DNA of 64,000 bases from a bacterium (GCA_023267635.1 JAHFMX010000004.1:2837-66836), one strand, 5' to 3'. Positions 29,758-64,000 are shown, counted from the first letter of the stretch. The notes: generated by a model from the sequence alone, not told the origin. Program-made: numbers and translations.

Positions 29758-31275
29758 ATGCAACTCCTCATTGATATCGCGCTTAGCCTTATCTATTTTT
29801 GTCTATTCTTACTTTTGTGCGCATGGGCATGGAGGTTCTGGATGATGTATATCAATCAGAAGTATTTAAACAAAACGAATCAGGAATATGTCATGCTTGA
29901 AATCAAGCTTCCTCGTGAAATTTTTAAATCTCCGTATGCTACTGAAGCGGCGCTAGCTTCACTTCTCCAAAGTGGAGGTATGAGTACATGGCATGCAAGG
30001 CTCTTTCAAGGAAATCTCCCGATGTATTCATCTCTAGAAATTGCATCAATTGAAGGTGTTGTTCATTTCTATATCCGTACTCAAGGAAAATTTCGTTCAC
30101 TTGTTGAATCTAACTTTTATGCACAGTACCCAGGAATAGAAATTGTTGAAGCAGATGATTATACAAACCTCATTAGGTATCATCATCTTACAAAAAATGT
30201 TAATTGTTGGGGGGAAACATATGGACTTCAAAAATCTTGGACACCAACTGATGAAGATAAGGGTGAAGCATATAAAGATAAAAAAGGTGATGACTATAAA
30301 ATGAAGGCAGATTTTCTGCCTATTAAAACATATGTTGATTATGGTTTGGATAAGGATCCAAAAGAAGAGTTTAAGATTGACCCGATTACACCTTTACTTG
30401 AAATGATGGGAAGCATTGGGAAGGGTGAATATTTATGGTATCAAATTATTCTTCAAGATGAATCAGTGTATGATGGAAAAAAGATGCCAAAAATATATGT
30501 TAATGAAATCACACACGAACATCTGTCTCTTGCGGATATGGCTAAAGAATATAAGAAGCAGAAAAAAGTAGCCGGATGGATAAAGAAAGGTGAGAAAGTC
30601 TACGACGATGAAGGGGATGTAAAACAGAAACAGATCGATAAAGATGCGGAGGGAAAACCTATCTATGGTGATGCTGTGCATCAAAAAACAAAACCTATTT
30701 CAAAAAAGGAAGTGGATGTAAGTGCCGAGGATAAAGATTTGATAGAAGCGGTAAATAAGAAACTTTCAAAGCCGCTCGCAAATGTCATTATACGTATGCT
30801 GTACCTGGCCAACACAGACGTAGGAAAATTTAATGTAGGAAATATTCAAAATATTCTTAGTTCCCATAAACCTTTTATAGGAATTAACTCTATTGGTTTC
30901 AAAAAAACAACTGACCCATATGATTTCAAATGGGAGAACTTTAGAGGGCGCCGTGTTCCATGGAGAACAGAAGAGATGTTTGAAGCATATGTTGAGCGCG
31001 AAGGATTCTACCCTCATATTGAATCAAGAAAGTCACTTGATGCTTGGGAGGATTCTATTTTCTGGGAATCAAGTATGAAAACAAGAAAGCTATGGCGCAT
31101 GATGTATGAAGGATTTTTCCATCCATTTAGTCATCCACAAGCAGATGAAGTATTTACGCTTAACCTTGAGGAATTAGCTACACTATGGCACTTGCCTGGC
31201 GCAGTTGCGACAACGCCTACGCTTCCACGTATCGACAGTGCTAAAGGAGTCGCCCCAGTTAATCTTCCTCAATAG
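29758..31275 (+). CDS. hypothetical membrane-anchored protein (505 aa)
   Basis: N-terminal TM, large Lys/Asp-rich domain; immediately upstream of mltG. Confidence 0.5.
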   Translation: MQLLIDIALSLIYFCLFLLLCAWAWRFWMMYINQKYLNKTNQEYVMLEIKLPREIFKSPYATEAALASLLQSGGMSTWHARLFQGNLPMYSSLEIASIEGVVHFYIRTQGKFRSLVESNFYAQYPGIEIVEADDYTNLIRYHHLTKNVNCWGETYGLQKSWTPTDEDKGEAYKDKKGDDYKMKADFLPIKTYVDYGLDKDPKEEFKIDPITPLLEMMGSIGKGEYLWYQIILQDESVYDGKKMPKIYVNEITHEHLSLADMAKEYKKQKKVAGWIKKGEKVYDDEGDVKQKQIDKDAEGKPIYGDAVHQKTKPISKKEVDVSAEDKDLIEAVNKKLSKPLANVIIRMLYLANTDVGKFNVGNIQNILSSHKPFIGINSIGFKKTTDPYDFKWENFRGRRVPWRTEEMFEAYVEREGFYPHIESRKSLDAWEDSIFWESSMKTRKLWRMMYEGFFHPFSHPQADEVFTLNLEELATLWHLPGAVATTPTLPRIDSAKGVAPVNLPQ

Positions 31276-58221: not shown

Positions 58222-58626
58222 ATGGAACTGAACCAAGCGAAAATTGAGGTTTGCTTTCCTGGCACATTGCTGAAGATTTTTTGGCTAATTCTCCACCCGA
58301 TTTTGTGGGTGGGGGCGCTGATCATGGTGAGTGCTTACACATCACCCGTCAGCAAAATCATCTTCCTGGTTGCGGGACTGGTTTCTTTTGCCGCCTTGCT
58401 AGGAGTTTTCTTCGGAAGCTCATCCACTGTTCGCAAAGAATCTGGGTATGTCGCTGGCACCGTTGCTGCTGTGGCCGCCATGGTTTTGAGTTTTAGCGCG
58501 GCCACCTATTCAGCAACCGACAACTTCCCAGGCGAAAGCCTGATTGACAAAAGGGCAGCTGCCATACAGCAAGCCCCTGGTGGACAGTTTCGTGGTCAAG
58601 GTGCCACCGGCTCCATCAAACCCTGA
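58222..58626 (+). CDS. small membrane protein, GC-elevated
   Basis: 134 aa, 3 TM, Ala/Gly-rich tail. Confidence 0.5.
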   Translation: MELNQAKIEVCFPGTLLKIFWLILHPILWVGALIMVSAYTSPVSKIIFLVAGLVSFAALLGVFFGSSSTVRKESGYVAGTVAAVAAMVLSFSAATYSATDNFPGESLIDKRAAAIQQAPGGQFRGQGATGSIKP

Positions 58627-58757: not shown

Positions 58758-60413
58758 ATGACGCAGAAAACCGCTCTCGATATTCTTAAACTTGGACATA
58801 CGGTATTTCTCACTGGTGCAGCGGGAGCTGGTAAAAGTTACGCTCTGCGTGAATATATTACGTACCTTCGTAAACACGGTATTAAATTCGCTGTTACCGC
58901 TTCCACTGGAATTGCTTCAACACACATCGGTGGAACAACCATTCACGCATGGAGTGGTCTTGGTATTAAACAAAAACTCACCGCGTATGATTTGGATGAA
59001 TTAGAAGAGAAACCAAACGTGTACAAACGATGGAATGATACACAAGTGCTCATCATCGATGAAATCTCGATGCTTCACGCTTCACTTGTGGATATGTTGG
59101 ATAAAGCAGGGAAACATCTACGAAGAAGTGATAAACCGTTCGGTGGACTACAAGTAGTATTCACGGGGGATTTCTTTCAGCTTCCACCAGTAGTACGTAA
59201 TGGAAATGAATATGAAAGTACGGACGTGTTCGCGTTTATGTCTAAAGCATGGAAAGAAGCCAAGCCTGTAGTCTGCTATTTAACAGAACAGTTCCGCCAA
59301 GAAGATGATACGCTCACGAATATTTTAAATGCTATCCGTTCTGGTGAAGTAGAAGAGGATCATTACCTGACACTTAAAGAATCGAGTAACACGCCACACA
59401 CGGATGATCATATAAAACTCTACACGCACAATGAGAATGTGGATCTGATTAATAAGAAAGCCTTTGACGCGCTCGAGGGTGAAGTGAAGAGATTCGACAT
59501 GGTAACAAAAGGGAAAGGTCCTGTACTCGCGTCATTGAAGAATAATTGTTTGGCGGATGAAATATTGGAACTCAAAATCGGAGCGAAAGTTATTTGTATC
59601 AAGAATGATGCGGAGCGAAAGTATGTGAATGGCTCTATGGGAATCGTGGTTGATTTTGAAAAGGATAACAGCCCAGTGATTGCACTTCAAACAGGCAAAC
59701 GAGTGGTTATGAAAGCCGACACTTGGCGTGTGGAAGAGGACGGAAAAGTAAAAGCTGAGATATCGCAGTTACCTATTAAATTAGCCTGGGCAATCACGGT
59801 TCACAAGAGCCAAGGAATGACCCTTGATAGGGCACAAATTGACCTCAGCCGTGCGTTTGCTTCAGGGCAGGGATATGTTGCTCTTTCTCGATTAAAGAGC
59901 ATGGAAGGGCTGCATTTGGTTGGCTTCAATCCACAAGCACTTCAAATCTCGGAAGAGGTTCGAGAAGCAGATTATACTTTCCGCAGCAAGAGTGAACAGG
60001 CAGAATATGCCCTTGATAAATATACTGAAGACGATTTGAAAGTGCTCCATGAAAAGTTCCTCACGGAGAAAGGAGGAACGCTCGTAGAGTTGAGTGATTC
60101 TGAGGCGGATGAGATTCAAGAGAAGACACTCACCCATACGGTAACGCAAGAGATGTTAAAGATCGGCCTTACACTTCCAGAAATTGCAGAGCAGAGAAAT
60201 CTCTCAGTGGATACTATTATTGGACATATTGAGAAGCTGGTAGAAATGAAAGAAGAAGTGGTGTTGGACAAAGTGTTACCTCCTAAAAAAGATGTGACCG
60301 CAATCAAGAAAGCTTTTAAGACTCTAGAGACCACAAAGCTCACCCCGGTCTTCGATGAACTGGCTGGAAAATACACCTTTCACCAAATACGTTTGGTTCG
60401 AGCCACATTATAG
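58758..60413 (+). CDS. Pif1/RecD-family ATP-dependent DNA helicase with C-terminal HTH
   Basis: Walker A GAAGAGKSY; motif II LIIDEISM; SF1B motifs TVHKSQGMT; C-terminal helix-turn-helix region. Confidence 0.8.
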   Translation: MTQKTALDILKLGHTVFLTGAAGAGKSYALREYITYLRKHGIKFAVTASTGIASTHIGGTTIHAWSGLGIKQKLTAYDLDELEEKPNVYKRWNDTQVLIIDEISMLHASLVDMLDKAGKHLRRSDKPFGGLQVVFTGDFFQLPPVVRNGNEYESTDVFAFMSKAWKEAKPVVCYLTEQFRQEDDTLTNILNAIRSGEVEEDHYLTLKESSNTPHTDDHIKLYTHNENVDLINKKAFDALEGEVKRFDMVTKGKGPVLASLKNNCLADEILELKIGAKVICIKNDAERKYVNGSMGIVVDFEKDNSPVIALQTGKRVVMKADTWRVEEDGKVKAEISQLPIKLAWAITVHKSQGMTLDRAQIDLSRAFASGQGYVALSRLKSMEGLHLVGFNPQALQISEEVREADYTFRSKSEQAEYALDKYTEDDLKVLHEKFLTEKGGTLVELSDSEADEIQEKTLTHTVTQEMLKIGLTLPEIAEQRNLSVDTIIGHIEKLVEMKEEVVLDKVLPPKKDVTAIKKAFKTLETTKLTPVFDELAGKYTFHQIRLVRATL

Positions 60414-60439
60414 ATAATTAAGAAGTAATACAAATACAA

Positions 60440-60468
60440 AAGCACCCATAAAAGGGTGCTTTTGTATT
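60440..60468 (+). terminator. rho-independent terminator
   Basis: aaaGCACCCataaaaGGGTGCttttgtattt. Confidence 0.6.
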
Positions 60469-60471
60469 TGC

Positions 60472-60542
60472 TGGGGAACAGGGACTCGAACCCCAATACC
60501 ATCCTCCAGAGGGATGTGTCCTACCATTAGACGATTCCCCAA
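60472..60542 (-). tRNA. tRNA-Gln (CTG)
   Basis: Minus strand: U1-A72 acceptor TGGGGAA/TTCCCCA, short D-loop, anticodon stem CATCC/GGATG with loop CTCTGGA. Confidence 0.8.
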
Positions 60543-60682
60543 TATATGAGATTTTTTACCTCAATATGCACAACATAATACTATATTATAGAGCTTTTGG
60601 GAATCCCTCTTCTTCAAGGTGTTTTTGTTTTATATAAAATAGTTTTTAAGATAAACCACACCTTGTGCTATTGTTATGACAT

Positions 60683-61105
60683 ATGGAAAAACTAAAAAGT
60701 AGATTACAGGTGCTTCTTGGTCTCTCATTATTTTTTCCTGTTGTTATGCAGGCACTTTTTGATAAAGAAACAAGTGGGGTAAATCATCTTATTTTACAGT
60801 GGAGCACCGTAATTGCTGTCCTAATTGTTAATTATTTAATTATTGAGTACTTTACTCCGAAATTCTCAAAGAAGGTGGAGAAAATTCTAGACAGGGTTAT
60901 AGGTATAAACATTTTACTGTTTGTTCCAGTAATCATGATTTTAGCAACTAATCCTGTAAATATCGCTGGACTGGCTCGTGTCGGTCTAACTTTAAGTGTC
61001 TGGGGGATAATAACTTTACCCATAATTTTGTTAGTCTCCATGATTTTATATTTTGCAGTAAACGTATGGGTTCCTTATTTGGAGAAGAAAATAGGGTCTA
61101 TTTAA
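60683..61105 (+). CDS. hypothetical polytopic membrane protein (low-GC region)
   Basis: 140 aa, 4 hydrophobic helices. Confidence 0.5.
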   Translation: MEKLKSRLQVLLGLSLFFPVVMQALFDKETSGVNHLILQWSTVIAVLIVNYLIIEYFTPKFSKKVEKILDRVIGINILLFVPVIMILATNPVNIAGLARVGLTLSVWGIITLPIILLVSMILYFAVNVWVPYLEKKIGSI

Positions 61106-61173
61106 TTTCCATCTTGGTTGCATATAACACAACGTTTACTTGCTTTTGACTAGATTAGGCGTAGAATTGAGTC

Positions 61174-63183
61174 ATGATTTCGAATATTGCTGGGTATCAC
61201 ACAAAAGAAGAATGGTTTCTAGGGAAGGGTTCTTTTGGCTCAGTTTACAGAGCTGAAAAAGACGGCAAGTCATACGCAATTAAAATATTTCAGACAGAGT
61301 TTCTTAAGGATGAATATAAAAAGTTCTTAGATAGAGAAGTTGATGCTTTAAGGAAAATTGATCATCCCCAGGTTGTAAAATTTTACGAATCTGGTATTTT
61401 TTCAGATAAAGGATTCGATTATTTCTATATAGTTATGGATTTCATCGAAGGGAAGAAACTTTCTACTTATGTTGGAAGTGGAGACGAGAAGCTCATAGTG
61501 GGAATTATTGAATCTCTTCTTGTGCCCCTTGAAGCTATTCATGCTGGCGGGATACTTCACAGAGATCTGAAACCAGACAACATCATCATTGATCAAAAGG
61601 GAACACCAATTATTCTGGATTTTGGTTTATCTAAAATAATTGATTACACATCAATTATTCAAACAGGAGAATTTGCTGGGACATTCTATTTCATGTCTCC
61701 TGAGCAAATAGTAGATAGTAAAAATATAGATGCTCGTTCTGATTATTTTGCAGTAGGTGTAATTCTCTACCAGCTTCTTACGGGGTTATTGCCGTTCGAT
61801 GCGCCAAATATTCCCGCGTTAATCGAAGAGATACAAAAGAGGTATCCGAAAGCCCCATCTGATATTAATCCAAATATTAGCAATAAAACCGAGAACGTAA
61901 TATTAAAACTTCTTGAGAAACAGCCTTATTCTCGCTATCAATCGACCGCTGAGATTATTTCAGCATTTAGCGAGGAGATAATTTTAAGAAAAGCAAAGCT
62001 AGATTTAAGAATTCGTAATTATGTAAGGGTTCTTAATAACGAAAAAACTGTTTTTAAAAAAGCATCAGAGGCTGGTTTGATTAGCGAAGTTTTATATCCA
62101 GCTAATTTGTTTGCAAGCTATAAACCCACTGTTAAGGTCATACAGGATTCTAGACTTCCTTTCACTACAGATCCGTCCACTAATAGACTTAACTACCCAG
62201 CTTTTTCAAGTTCGCCTACACTACAAGAGCTACCATACTCATCGGGCAGCGACACAACCCCACTTCAGAAAAAAGATTTTCATTCTATTACACAAATTCA
62301 AGAATATGTAAAAAAGGTGATTGACCATCAAATTATGTATGGAGTTAATGAACTCGCAGCCCCTTTTTTCTTTGCAAAAGATCCATCGGATGAATGGTAT
62401 TCTATTAATCTTAAACTCCTCAAAGAGTCTATAGATTATAGAGATAAGAATCATTCTGAATTACCTCTCTGGGCGGGAATCTGTATGAATGTAGACGGTT
62501 GGCATGACGATGATATAAAAAACGAAATACTTAATAAGTATGTTAAGAATGCCCCAGATGGTTTTTTTGTATATGGTGATCCTGTCAGTAACAGTGCTAA
62601 TTTAGCTCAAGTTTTTCATTACTCAGACTTCTTAATAAAGTTACAAAAAGCATCTAATGTTCCTGTTATAACAGCAAGAGTGAACGGTTTAGGGCTAGTT
62701 TTGTTATGTCTAGGTTTATCTGGGATGTCGTGCGGTATTTCTGGGTTAGACAGTTTTCAAGAGGGACTGCTTTCAGATCAAAAAGAAGATACATATGGTA
62801 TGGACCCTAGATACTATATTCCTGAATTAATGTCTCTAGTAACTTTAAAAAAAGGCATTACAACAAAACTTAAAGATATTAATAAATCTAGTATTTCAGA
62901 AGCGTTGAAATGCCCATGTCCGTATTGTAAAGATATTTTAGAAGAAGAAGTTTTAATCTCTGAGCGAGTCAAGATGCATTTCCTTTATCGGAGAAAAGAA
63001 GAAATGGATACCATCAATTCACTTAATGAAGAAGAGAGACTTAAATATATAGAAGAGAGACTTGCTAAAGCTCTAGAGTATAAAAAAACACTTACAAAAG
63101 AAGGTTTTAAAATTAGTAGCGATTTTTCTCATTTAAATACTTGGAAATCTTTAATAGAGGAGTTTAAGAAATTAGGAGTGTAG
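61174..63183 (+). CDS. Ser/Thr protein kinase with large uncharacterised C-terminal domain
   Basis: Kinase subdomains: GKGSFGSVY, AIK, HRDLKPDNIII, DFGLSK, SPE; C-terminal ~400 aa with CPCPYC...H motif; 669 aa; low GC. Confidence 0.75.
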   Translation: MISNIAGYHTKEEWFLGKGSFGSVYRAEKDGKSYAIKIFQTEFLKDEYKKFLDREVDALRKIDHPQVVKFYESGIFSDKGFDYFYIVMDFIEGKKLSTYVGSGDEKLIVGIIESLLVPLEAIHAGGILHRDLKPDNIIIDQKGTPIILDFGLSKIIDYTSIIQTGEFAGTFYFMSPEQIVDSKNIDARSDYFAVGVILYQLLTGLLPFDAPNIPALIEEIQKRYPKAPSDINPNISNKTENVILKLLEKQPYSRYQSTAEIISAFSEEIILRKAKLDLRIRNYVRVLNNEKTVFKKASEAGLISEVLYPANLFASYKPTVKVIQDSRLPFTTDPSTNRLNYPAFSSSPTLQELPYSSGSDTTPLQKKDFHSITQIQEYVKKVIDHQIMYGVNELAAPFFFAKDPSDEWYSINLKLLKESIDYRDKNHSELPLWAGICMNVDGWHDDDIKNEILNKYVKNAPDGFFVYGDPVSNSANLAQVFHYSDFLIKLQKASNVPVITARVNGLGLVLLCLGLSGMSCGISGLDSFQEGLLSDQKEDTYGMDPRYYIPELMSLVTLKKGITTKLKDINKSSISEALKCPCPYCKDILEEEVLISERVKMHFLYRRKEEMDTINSLNEEERLKYIEERLAKALEYKKTLTKEGFKISSDFSHLNTWKSLIEEFKKLGV

Positions 63184-63831
63184 CGAAAGAAACTTTTCCA
63201 ACATAAGTTCTTTTGCATATATATTAATCTTACTTGCCGCAGTTTGTTGTGATTTTGGGTATTTAATTTCAATTGAGTTATTTTTAATATCAAAAAGAAT
63301 TAAACCTATATTACTTTTATTGAATTCATTGATATCTATATTTTTTTCTGCTTCTTTAAGAATTGCTAAGTAAGACTCATCAGCGAAGTATTGGTACCTT
63401 TTTGCTTGAAGTAAGCCATTTTTGTGATCAGTTAGTTTAACTTCAATTGCTATCACTTTCTTTATTTGCCCCAGGTTACTACTTGGGCATTTTTTAAAAT
63501 GGTTATTCGTTACTATTTCTATGTATTTGTTTTTTATTAAAAAATTTAATTGAGAAGATAAATGGCGTTTCTCTGTCACGTCTCCTAACGAAAGGACCTC
63601 TTCTTTAGAAAATTGATTCTTATGTATCGATAATAAGATTTTTAATGCATAAAAATTAGTAAGAGGAGCTCGACTGACCGCTTTTTTGGAGAAAGAAAAA
63701 TTACTAGCAAAAACTAGATCAGCAATACCGTAGCCAGCTGAAAACTCTTTAAATGATAGATTTGTGCCAAATTTTTTTCTTAAGATCTTATCGAGTTTCT
63801 CAACTAGAGTCTTCTCGTTAAAATTTTTCAT
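63172..63831 (-). CDS. hypothetical protein, possible PD-(D/E)xK nuclease fold
   Basis: 219 aa, low GC; candidate motif GIADLVF ... IAIEVKL (D...E.K). Confidence 0.35.
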   Translation of the reverse strand: MKNFNEKTLVEKLDKILRKKFGTNLSFKEFSAGYGIADLVFASNFSFSKKAVSRAPLTNFYALKILLSIHKNQFSKEEVLSLGDVTEKRHLSSQLNFLIKNKYIEIVTNNHFKKCPSSNLGQIKKVIAIEVKLTDHKNGLLQAKRYQYFADESYLAILKEAEKNIDINEFNKSNIGLILFDIKNNSIEIKYPKSQQTAASKINIYAKELMLEKFLSLHS

Positions 63832-64000
63832 AATTAAATAGATAAATGAGTTTAATCCTTATATAGGAGTATACTCTACATAAAGGGACTTTGCCTGTTG
63901 ATAGGCAAATAAAATGTCAAAAATAGAAATAATAAAAAAGAATATCTTCTTATGTAGCCTCGAGAAAAATAATGTCTTAGAGGCATTTAAAGAGTGGAGA

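Follow-up and report, generated by a model that had tools for sequence, protein, structure and literature searches.

A Hanks-type kinase fused to a predicted TGT-superfamily domain and paired with a nuclease-like protein: a candidate conflict module in a low-GC islet

What is the function of the small low-GC gene cluster that lies next to a tRNA-Gln gene near the end of a 64,000-nucleotide stretch of bacterial DNA (GCA_023267635.1, JAHFMX010000004.1:2837-66836; the whole of this stretch is called the window below), and could it be a defence system? An initial annotation of the window, made from the sequence alone, had described three genes here, encoding a protein with four transmembrane segments, a 669-aa protein with an N-terminal kinase domain and a convergent 219-aa protein, and all three open reading frames (ORFs) were found. 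Two of them belong together: the gene for the 669-aa protein (61174..63183, plus strand, GC 0.346), which joins a Hanks-type Ser/Thr kinase to a domain that we assign by modelling to the tRNA-guanine transglycosylase (TGT) superfamily, and the gene for the 219-aa protein (63172..63831, minus strand, GC 0.294), which is nuclease-like. The two genes are convergent, with a 12-nt overlap at their 3' ends. The kinase-TGT-like gene and its partner form a conserved two-gene module, and the pair is, in our view, a good candidate for a new system directed against phages or plasmids.

The kinase part of the 669-aa protein is the easier one to place. Residues 15-257 (61216..61944, plus strand) match the Pfam model PF00069 (Pkinase) with an E-value of 8e-48 and 163.5 bits (cutoff 31.7), and the kinase motifs are all intact (G17KGSFGSV, K37 in AIK, H129RDLKPDN, D149FG and S175PE) and nearly invariant across 65 sequences. 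By model match and complete catalytic motifs this is a Hanks-type Ser/Thr kinase, complete as the initial annotation had read it, with predicted kinase activity. A comparison with PADLOC, which had been proposed as a check, gave a divided answer: its PD-T4-6 and mad6 profiles match the kinase domain (E-values of 5e-61 and 1e-53), and none of its profiles matches the C-terminal domain or the partner. The matches end near profile position 270-280, even in profiles of 450-660 residues (for PD-T4-6, for example, at positions 23-278 of 510 and 16-267 of 486), i.e. the likeness to PD-T4-6 covers the kinase domain and not the whole length, and the architecture differs. NCBIfam kinase models also match the kinase domain only and stay under their family cutoffs, PknB_PASTA_kin (190 bits) included. 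What the protein shares with PD-T4-6, Stk2-type kinases, PglW (BREX type 2/Pgl) and Mad6 (MADS) is thus a Hanks-type kinase domain in a defence-island setting. Unlike in MADS and BREX, no methyltransferase, PglX/PglZ or other such components accompany the module, and a TGT-like C-terminal domain together with an obligatory nuclease partner is not a feature of the kinase systems as modelled in PADLOC.

The C-terminal domain (residues 272-669; 61987..63180, plus strand) is more difficult, and had been described as unrecognised and novel, with a CxCxxC...H cluster. At the level of sequence libraries this stands: residues ~272-669 have no match in Pfam, NCBIfam, PADLOC, PHROGs or the PDB sequences, in single-sequence as well as family-profile searches; TGT models match neither the protein of the window at E <= 0.1 (Pfam, NCBIfam) nor 14 C-terminal domains at E <= 10 (Pfam); and stand-alone members of the family are likewise without a Pfam match. 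The cysteine cluster is also real, but the fold is not a new one. An AlphaFold2 (AF2) model built with 65 sequences (pLDDT 90.2, pTM 0.91) contains eight beta/alpha units that form a (beta/alpha)8 barrel, followed after beta8 by a helix, a beta-hairpin, short helices, the Cys cluster, a long helix that contains the His, and a terminal helical bundle. In a Foldseek search of the PDB the top 45 matches of this model are all TGT or QTRT structures (Z. mobilis TGT, QTRT1/QTRT2), aligned over ~400 columns with TM-scores of 0.52-0.55 and E-values down to 4e-6, at 11-15% identity in the structural alignments, whereas unrelated TIM barrels reach a TMq of 0.35-0.39 only.

The zinc-site motif C580-x-C582-x-x-C585-x16-H602 (CPCPYC...H; 62911..62979, plus strand) is the counterpart of the structural zinc site of TGT and DpdA. 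Its four residues are invariant in homologues of the fused protein, and C309, C314 and H331 (numbering of the C-terminal domain), i.e. three of the four zinc ligands, are conserved in at least 90% of the wide family. The TGTs (bacterial TGT, QTRT1/QTRT2 and the archaeosine TGT, ArcTGT; PF01702) are likewise (beta/alpha)8 barrels whose large beta8/alpha8 insertion is held in place by such a CxCxxC...H site. In bacterial TGT the Cys-to-His spacer has 25 residues. It has 16 residues in the C-terminal domain and 22 in the published DpdA (PMC10164549), and the same source describes DpdA and TGT as (beta/alpha)8 barrels with three invariant Asp residues and an insertion, Ins8, fastened by a CxCx2Cx22H zinc site to which the insertion contributes the three Cys and helix alpha8 the His. 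Because the barrel, insertion and zinc site of our model agree with this published topology (PMC10164549), we take the domain, as modelled, to be a very divergent TGT-superfamily TIM barrel, with the Cys/His cluster as a structural zinc site.

Profile comparisons point in the same direction, if faintly. With a profile of 80 family sequences the top PDB sequence match is the archaeosine TGT 1IQ8 (E-value 0.022), aligned on CxCxxC...H (CSCPVC...H in ArcTGT) and covering the zinc subdomain only. When this profile is compared with E. coli Tgt by hhalign, beta4-beta7 are aligned, marginally, in the register that the model predicts; an alignment of 14 C-terminal domains picks out the zinc motif alone (C302/304/307, probability 0.1). 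In a viral fold library, phage DpdA-type proteins match the domain more weakly than cellular TGTs do. That the domain might be closest to phage or bacterial DpdA was considered and rejected, given these weaker viral matches and the lack of any PADLOC DpdA match.

If the domain is an enzyme, or descends from one, where would its pocket be? Over 117 representatives of the family (33 fused and 84 stand-alone) the best conserved positions are D62-P63, P126, G236, G243, G250, an acidic residue at 255 and the four zinc ligands (numbering of the C-terminal domain). D62-P63 (D333-P334 in the full-length protein) comes directly after beta3, and D62 is at least 90% conserved; position 255, five residues after beta8, is D526 here and Glu in 73% of the stand-alone members; E530 is likewise invariant in the fused clade; and P126, after beta4, belongs to a conserved A-P-(F/Y). 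In TGTs an Asp at the end of beta3 serves as general acid/base and another at the end of beta8 as nucleophile. By strand order D62 of the model may correspond to the former (Z. mobilis D102, DpdA D95), and residue 255 may lie near the latter (Z. mobilis D280, DpdA D256). In contrast, there is no conserved Asp in the family at the end of beta4, where the guanine-recognising Asp of TGT and DpdA (Z. mobilis D156, DpdA D130) is invariant; in the hhalign alignment, which is of low confidence, D143 of E. coli Tgt falls in a gap. As modelled, this suggests a functional pocket with a base specificity unlike that of TGT and DpdA. The domain thus differs from the TGTs in having neither a sequence-model match nor a counterpart of the guanine-binding Asp, and also in its company: it is fused to a kinase, paired with a nuclease-like gene and found in mobile and defence settings, whereas E. 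coli Tgt sits by queA-type housekeeping genes.

For the 219-aa protein a possible D...EVK nuclease motif had been pointed out. Searches of Pfam, NCBIfam, PADLOC, PHROGs and the PDB, with the single sequence and with a family profile, place the protein in no sequence family, but conservation and structure bear the motif out. E29, D38, E130 and K132 do not vary among 54 close and four distant family members, nor do Q142, R145 and Y146, and this holds down to relatives of 20-26% identity. In the model (pLDDT 89) the core has the alpha-beta-beta-beta-alpha-beta order of PD-(D/E)xK nucleases, interrupted between its strands 2 and 3 by a winged helix, and the catalytic-type residues are placed on strands 26-30, 37-42 and 126-131. 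E130-V-K132 (63436..63444, minus strand), together with E29 and D38 (the latter encoded at 63718-63720), would form a putative metal-binding catalytic site, and after the ExK comes a helix with a conserved QA(R/K)RY(Q)YFAD. The winged-helix insertion (residues ~55-120; 63472..63669, minus strand; H-S-H-H-S-S in the model) presumably binds DNA and has weak fold matches to HlyU, FOXN1 and MukE. Foldseek matches of the whole model are weak (best E-value 6e-3, low TM-scores), and all are either to PD-(D/E)xK proteins (cap-snatching endonucleases, Cas4, DpnI, XisH) or to winged-helix proteins. Judging from the model, the protein is likely to be a PD-(D/E)xK nuclease. With restriction endonuclease-like nucleases that carry a winged helix (DpnI; type II/IV restriction endonucleases, Cas4, XisH) it shares an E...D...ExK arrangement on an alpha-beta-beta-beta-alpha-beta core and a winged helix-turn-helix; it differs from them in the position of the winged helix, which is embedded between strands 2 and 3 of the nuclease core instead of being appended, in the conserved helix after the ExK and in the lack of a sequence-family match.

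How general is the association of these two genes? The C-terminal domain has 161 close relatives, almost all of them kinase fusions of ~665 aa, and the partner has 151. Fused relatives occur in assemblies of the candidate phyla radiation (CPR)/Patescibacteria, namely Woesebacteria, Levybacteria, WWE3, Saccharibacteria, Vogelbacteria and Jorgensenbacteria, and relatives of fusion and partner are annotated at source as "serine/threonine-protein kinase" or "hypothetical protein" only. An exhaustive profile search extended the TGT-like family to 851 representative clusters at 50% identity, many of whose members are stand-alone proteins of ~400 aa without a Pfam or PADLOC match; a profile search of a large database returned mainly the known fused proteins, with no new names or architectures. 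The conserved core of the wider family is the TGT-like protein and not the kinase, which is an N-terminal addition in one clade. The partner gene is the immediate neighbour of the fusion gene at all 14 independent kinase-fused loci, convergent and overlapping in the main branch and co-directional in a branch of 33-37% identity, and the same nuclease-like partner accompanies the TGT-like protein at two of six stand-alone loci. The kinase-nuclease pairing to which the initial annotation had drawn attention therefore holds as a conserved pair, one that is found in defence islands and mobile elements of many genomes.

At four stand-alone loci (L020 and plasmids of Rhizobium, Gordonia and Clavibacter) genes for an Xre/MbcA antitoxin and a RES toxin take the place of the partner. 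This sub-branch, with an Xre/MbcA gene and a RES NAD+-phosphorylase gene, is found at L023:6001-8223, L024:6061-8107, L025:3923-6242 and L020:7001-9186, its hosts being plasmids of Rhizobium sp. TH2, Gordonia sp. SMJS1 and Clavibacter michiganensis (pCM2, in divergent orientation) and a metagenomic mobile region; stand-alone TGT-like protein, Xre/MbcA and RES may constitute a three-gene system. A different arrangement is seen at L018:7001-9302 (also L019), where a ribosomal-protein operon, otherwise canonical, is interrupted between rpsJ (S10) and rplC (L3) by genes for a stand-alone TGT-like protein (400 aa), a PIN_3 protein (149 aa) and a convergent partner (230 aa). In one protein of the family (P0307) a DnaA N-terminal domain (PF11638) is fused ahead of the TGT-like domain, a hint that the family works on or near DNA.

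The surroundings of the module are those of genomic conflict. At L003-6, L012 and L016 it comes directly after a pair of type II methyltransferase and restriction endonuclease (GmrSD_N-HNH) genes, at L033 after DarT-NADAR, and at L027-30 between an SNF2/DUF4391 pair and a type III-like methylase/Res pair, and an AbiLi-like ATPase gene lies near the module at L009. Mobile contexts are equally apparent: at L007 the module sits between large serine recombinase genes, with a Replic_Relax gene present, at L031 it is part of an integrase/Prim-Pol/TnpV element, and at L022 it is carried by a mobilizable Priestia megaterium plasmid. On that plasmid (p6_CACC119; L022:5113-7782, NZ_CP140272.1 27082-29751) the fusion WP_322552809.1 is followed by a convergent, overlapping partner, WP_322552810.1, and just upstream of the pair are a gene for a Y-family-polymerase-like "damage repair protein" and a YolD-like gene. 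A metagenome-assembled genome of Jorgensenbacteria (L014:1555-11553) has the kinase-TGT pair, together with an AIG2/GGACT-like gene, between hsdM and hsdS of a type I restriction-modification (R-M) operon, with a GmrSD gene upstream. At L010 a DpdB-like gene (L010:6689-7780; PADLOC DpdB E-value 2e-25, Pfam DndB) lies directly upstream of the kinase-TGT-like gene, and downstream of the fusion is a gene for a PDC-S60-like Metallophos/nSTAND protein of ~1000 aa. This DpdB-like neighbour is the sole direct link to Dpd-type DNA chemistry.

Returning to the window, the drop in GC content beyond the tRNA-Gln gene, which had been judged by eye, is pronounced: GC is 0.329 over 60545-64000, compared to 0.421 +/- 0.016 (minimum 0.392) in windows of the same size elsewhere in the stretch, GC at third codon positions is 0.26-0.31 in the genes of the islet versus 0.36-0.40 in flanking genes, and the tetranucleotide distance between islet and backbone has a z of 8.9. 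A further local dip in GC is present at 30001-31000 (0.356 versus ~0.41 in the neighbouring kilobases). The left border of the islet is the tRNA-Gln gene itself (anticodon CTG; 60470..60541, minus strand; ARAGORN, and 54.5 bits with the Rfam tRNA model, the sole Rfam element), whose 5' end faces the islet. Between it and the preceding gene is a perfect hairpin of 17-18 bp (60430..60471; an inverted repeat with 100% complementarity), a terminator-like site that is likely to be a bidirectional terminator and a backbone element outside the module. The preceding gene (58758-60413) is of normal composition (GC 0.43) and encodes a Pif1-family helicase with a C-terminal HTH_40 domain, and between it and ftsX lies a 134-aa ORF (58222-58626), hydrophobic and rich in Ala, Gly and Ser, with no family in the source gene calls.

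Within the islet, the hydrophobic 140-aa ORF (60683..61105, plus strand, GC 0.336; 4-5 transmembrane segments predicted by hydropathy) precedes the fusion gene, and a 208-aa orphan gene (63914..64000 is the part inside the window, plus strand, GC 0.32) follows the partner. The 140-aa protein has no family matches in Pfam, NCBIfam, PADLOC or the PDB sequences, the 208-aa orphan has no Pfam family, and neither has a counterpart in any other locus examined; both were therefore rejected as components of the module. The membrane protein, counted as part of the cluster in the initial annotation, is instead a passenger of the islet, outside the conserved unit. The islet had been expected to continue past the end of the window, and does so by one low-GC gene only: according to gene calls in a longer copy of the locus (L001/L026) the 208-aa orphan, which contains CxxC motifs, ends at ~64540, ~540 nt beyond the window end, and is the last gene of the low-GC block. 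Past it, GC is back at 0.39-0.44 and the genes have normal composition. From the low-GC block to rpsI-rplM (L026:11898-16296) that copy carries, besides the 208-aa orphan, genes for an AHSA1/SRPBCC-like protein, a 177-aa protein of no known kind, an EEP-family phosphatase, a YkuD L,D-transpeptidase and an IS30-family transposase, and this wider region may be a variable accessory segment.

The composition is thus foreign, and an accessory or defence islet remains the best reading of it, the defence part coming from the context described above. The proximity of the tRNA gene, however, which had been thought suggestive, is no evidence of integration. No convincing direct repeats, att-like repeats or tRNA fragment duplication were found in the flanks, the low-GC block contains no integrase gene, and there is no "empty-site" contig with the same helicase on record; tRNA-targeted integration was rejected as unsupported, because it is the 5' end of the tRNA gene that borders the islet, and neither flanking repeats nor an integrase are present. 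Promoter-like sites in the islet are not above those in shuffled sequence.

What, then, might the module do? We consider the two-gene unit a horizontally mobile conflict module, most likely anti-phage or anti-plasmid, and, with the defence function inferred from context, would put the chances of this at about even. The TGT-like domain would be the specificity component, providing base-directed recognition of a nucleic acid, most likely DNA. The conserved Asp that follows beta3 and the acidic residue behind beta8 may allow glycosidic-bond chemistry, and the target base is probably not ordinary guanine, because the guanine-recognising Asp of TGT and DpdA is absent. Recognition of invader nucleic acid would trigger two responses: the partner nuclease would cut DNA and the fused kinase would phosphorylate proteins; in other branches the TGT-like protein would be coupled to an Xre-RES toxin-antitoxin pair, or to an extra PIN gene beside the nuclease-like partner.

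Several observations weigh against this. The loci were reached by homology searches and are a non-random sample, in which the defence context was judged gene by gene and not by an enrichment statistic, and the DpdB-like neighbour is present at one of 16 loci only. The resemblance to TGT is seen at the level of the fold and the zinc motif only, with marginal sequence-profile signals (E-values of 0.011-0.022); the equivalence of D62 and residue 255 to the TGT and DpdA residues is one of strand order in a model; the fold support for the partner is weak, as noted; and no known defence-system model in PADLOC matches either the C-terminal domain or the partner. Finally, with the guanine-binding Asp apparently missing, TGT-like chemistry is not assured, and the ligand of the modelled pocket could be something other than a nucleic acid.

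One may also consider an explanation by self-marking, as in R-M systems, in which the TGT-like domain would mark host DNA by base exchange, the partner would cut unmarked DNA and the kinase would regulate this or add an output, for which the kinases of BREX type 2 (PglW) and MADS (Mad6) are a precedent. This is a serious rival, even if we think it rather improbable. The closest functional analogue, the DNA-acting TGT-like DpdA, does belong to an R-M-like system (PMC10164549; PMC12839542), and DpdA of the Dpd 7-deazaguanine system (PDB 7UI4) resembles our domain in being a TGT-superfamily enzyme of a prokaryotic conflict system that acts, or in our case is presumed to act, on DNA, with a zinc-pinned Ins8. 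Strict pairing of an enzyme with a nuclease, in overlapping convergent genes, recalls many type II R-M systems; acidic residues of catalytic type are conserved; a DpdB-like gene adjoins the fusion at L010; the module behaves as a selfish mobile unit, inserted as it is in a ribosomal operon and an hsd operon; and the kinase domain resembles, at the domain level, those of PglW (BREX type 2) and Mad6 (MADS). However, DpdB, DpdC, DpdD-K and preQ0-synthesis genes are all lacking in the islet of the window and in most loci, L010 with its DpdB-like gene being the one exception, and at no examined locus do donor-base (preQ0/que) genes or DpdC lie within or close to the module; biosynthetic capacity is low in CPR genomes. 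Moreover, the Asp that recognises guanine and 7-deazaguanine is absent, PADLOC DpdA models match neither the C-terminal domain nor the stand-alone members, and, where Dpd has its own set of genes, our module has a PD-(D/E)xK protein with a winged helix, a kinase, Xre-RES or an added PIN gene as partners, of which the Xre-RES-paired branch does not fit the logic of modification and restriction. Sensing of an invader is favoured over self-marking of the Dpd kind because of the toxin-type partners (Xre-RES at four loci, PIN at one) and because neither donor-base genes nor the guanine-binding Asp are present.

Could the substrate be RNA rather than DNA? In that case the module would act in abortive infection or addiction, the TGT-like domain removing or exchanging a base in tRNA or another RNA and so halting translation, with the partner as a regulator or second effector, and would mainly stabilise mobile elements. 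The best structural matches of the domain are indeed tRNA-acting TGTs and not DpdA, and the family is linked to genes of the toxin-antitoxin type (Xre-RES, PIN), to plasmids and to integrative elements. We nevertheless find RNA targeting less likely, and indeed improbable, as the winged helix and PD-(D/E)xK site of the partner are typical of DNA enzymes, the domain lacks a PUA or other tRNA-binding extension such as that of ArcTGT, and both the DpdB-like neighbour at L010 and the R-M-rich context point to DNA.

An ordinary signalling kinase, with a small-molecule sensor or enzymatic TIM barrel at its C-terminus, next to an unrelated 219-aa gene and in a region whose low GC is incidental, is less likely still, in fact very unlikely: C-terminal sensor domains of many kinds are common in Hanks kinases, the kinase does match a housekeeping PknB-type model (PknB_PASTA_kin, below its cutoff) and the source annotation is simply serine/threonine kinase, but the partner is adjacent at all 14 fused loci despite differing orientation and neighbours and accompanies the TGT-like protein without the kinase as well, the distribution over phyla and plasmids is patchy, the module is embedded in R-M and toxin-antitoxin loci, its composition is foreign, and the zinc-pinned insertion is specific to TGT-type nucleic-acid enzymes.

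If the unit is a mobile conflict module that senses invader nucleic acid, as we prefer, a broader proposal may be ventured for the TGT-like protein itself. It could represent an unrecognised, widespread class of prokaryotic immune sensor or enzyme, a zinc-pinned TIM barrel descended from base-exchanging transglycosylases, which would flip out a particular, possibly phage-modified base in the nucleic acid of an invader and recognise (or excise) it. Interchangeable effectors would then be licensed, among them the PD-(D/E)xK nuclease, the Ser/Thr kinase, the NAD+-depleting toxin of Xre-RES and, possibly, the RNase of the PIN type. We put this forward tentatively, as a possibility that may well prove wrong; if true, it would be a sensing principle new to defence, distinct both from self-marking of the Dpd type and from the known type IV restriction readers.

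Has such a system been described before? In the databases and full-text papers searched, neither a kinase-TGT fusion nor this TGT-like family nor the partner was described, and the only TGT homologues found there in defence are DpdA, of Dpd, and those of the predicted BRC systems. In the latter, which are BREX-related, a TGT is paired with GNAT, HerA/FtsK, PglZ and others (PMC12839542); the GNAT, HerA/FtsK and PglZ partners are absent from our module. The proteins of the Patescibacteria-specific defences "Dallas" and LdgA are reported to have no recognisable domains, and no kinase is described among defence proteins in that study (PMC12366544). That the fusion is one of these two is unlikely, the published descriptions alone (PMC12366544) setting them apart; an overlap of either with the partner or with stand-alone members of the family is possible.

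If our reading is right, the module would represent a family of conflict systems that is new and uses a fold so far tied to defence only via Dpd and, by prediction, BRC, and a large unannotated protein family, with its 851 representative clusters, would join the defence repertoire. It could reveal how a base-exchange scaffold became a sensor or an effector of the DNA glycosylase type, and how a Hanks kinase is connected to the recognition of nucleic acid. The presence of the same two-gene architecture on a plasmid of the cultured Priestia megaterium, and of stand-alone versions on plasmids of Rhizobium, Gordonia and Clavibacter, offers an entry point to these questions. For the Patescibacteria, in which very few defence systems are known, the module would be a recurrent candidate system.

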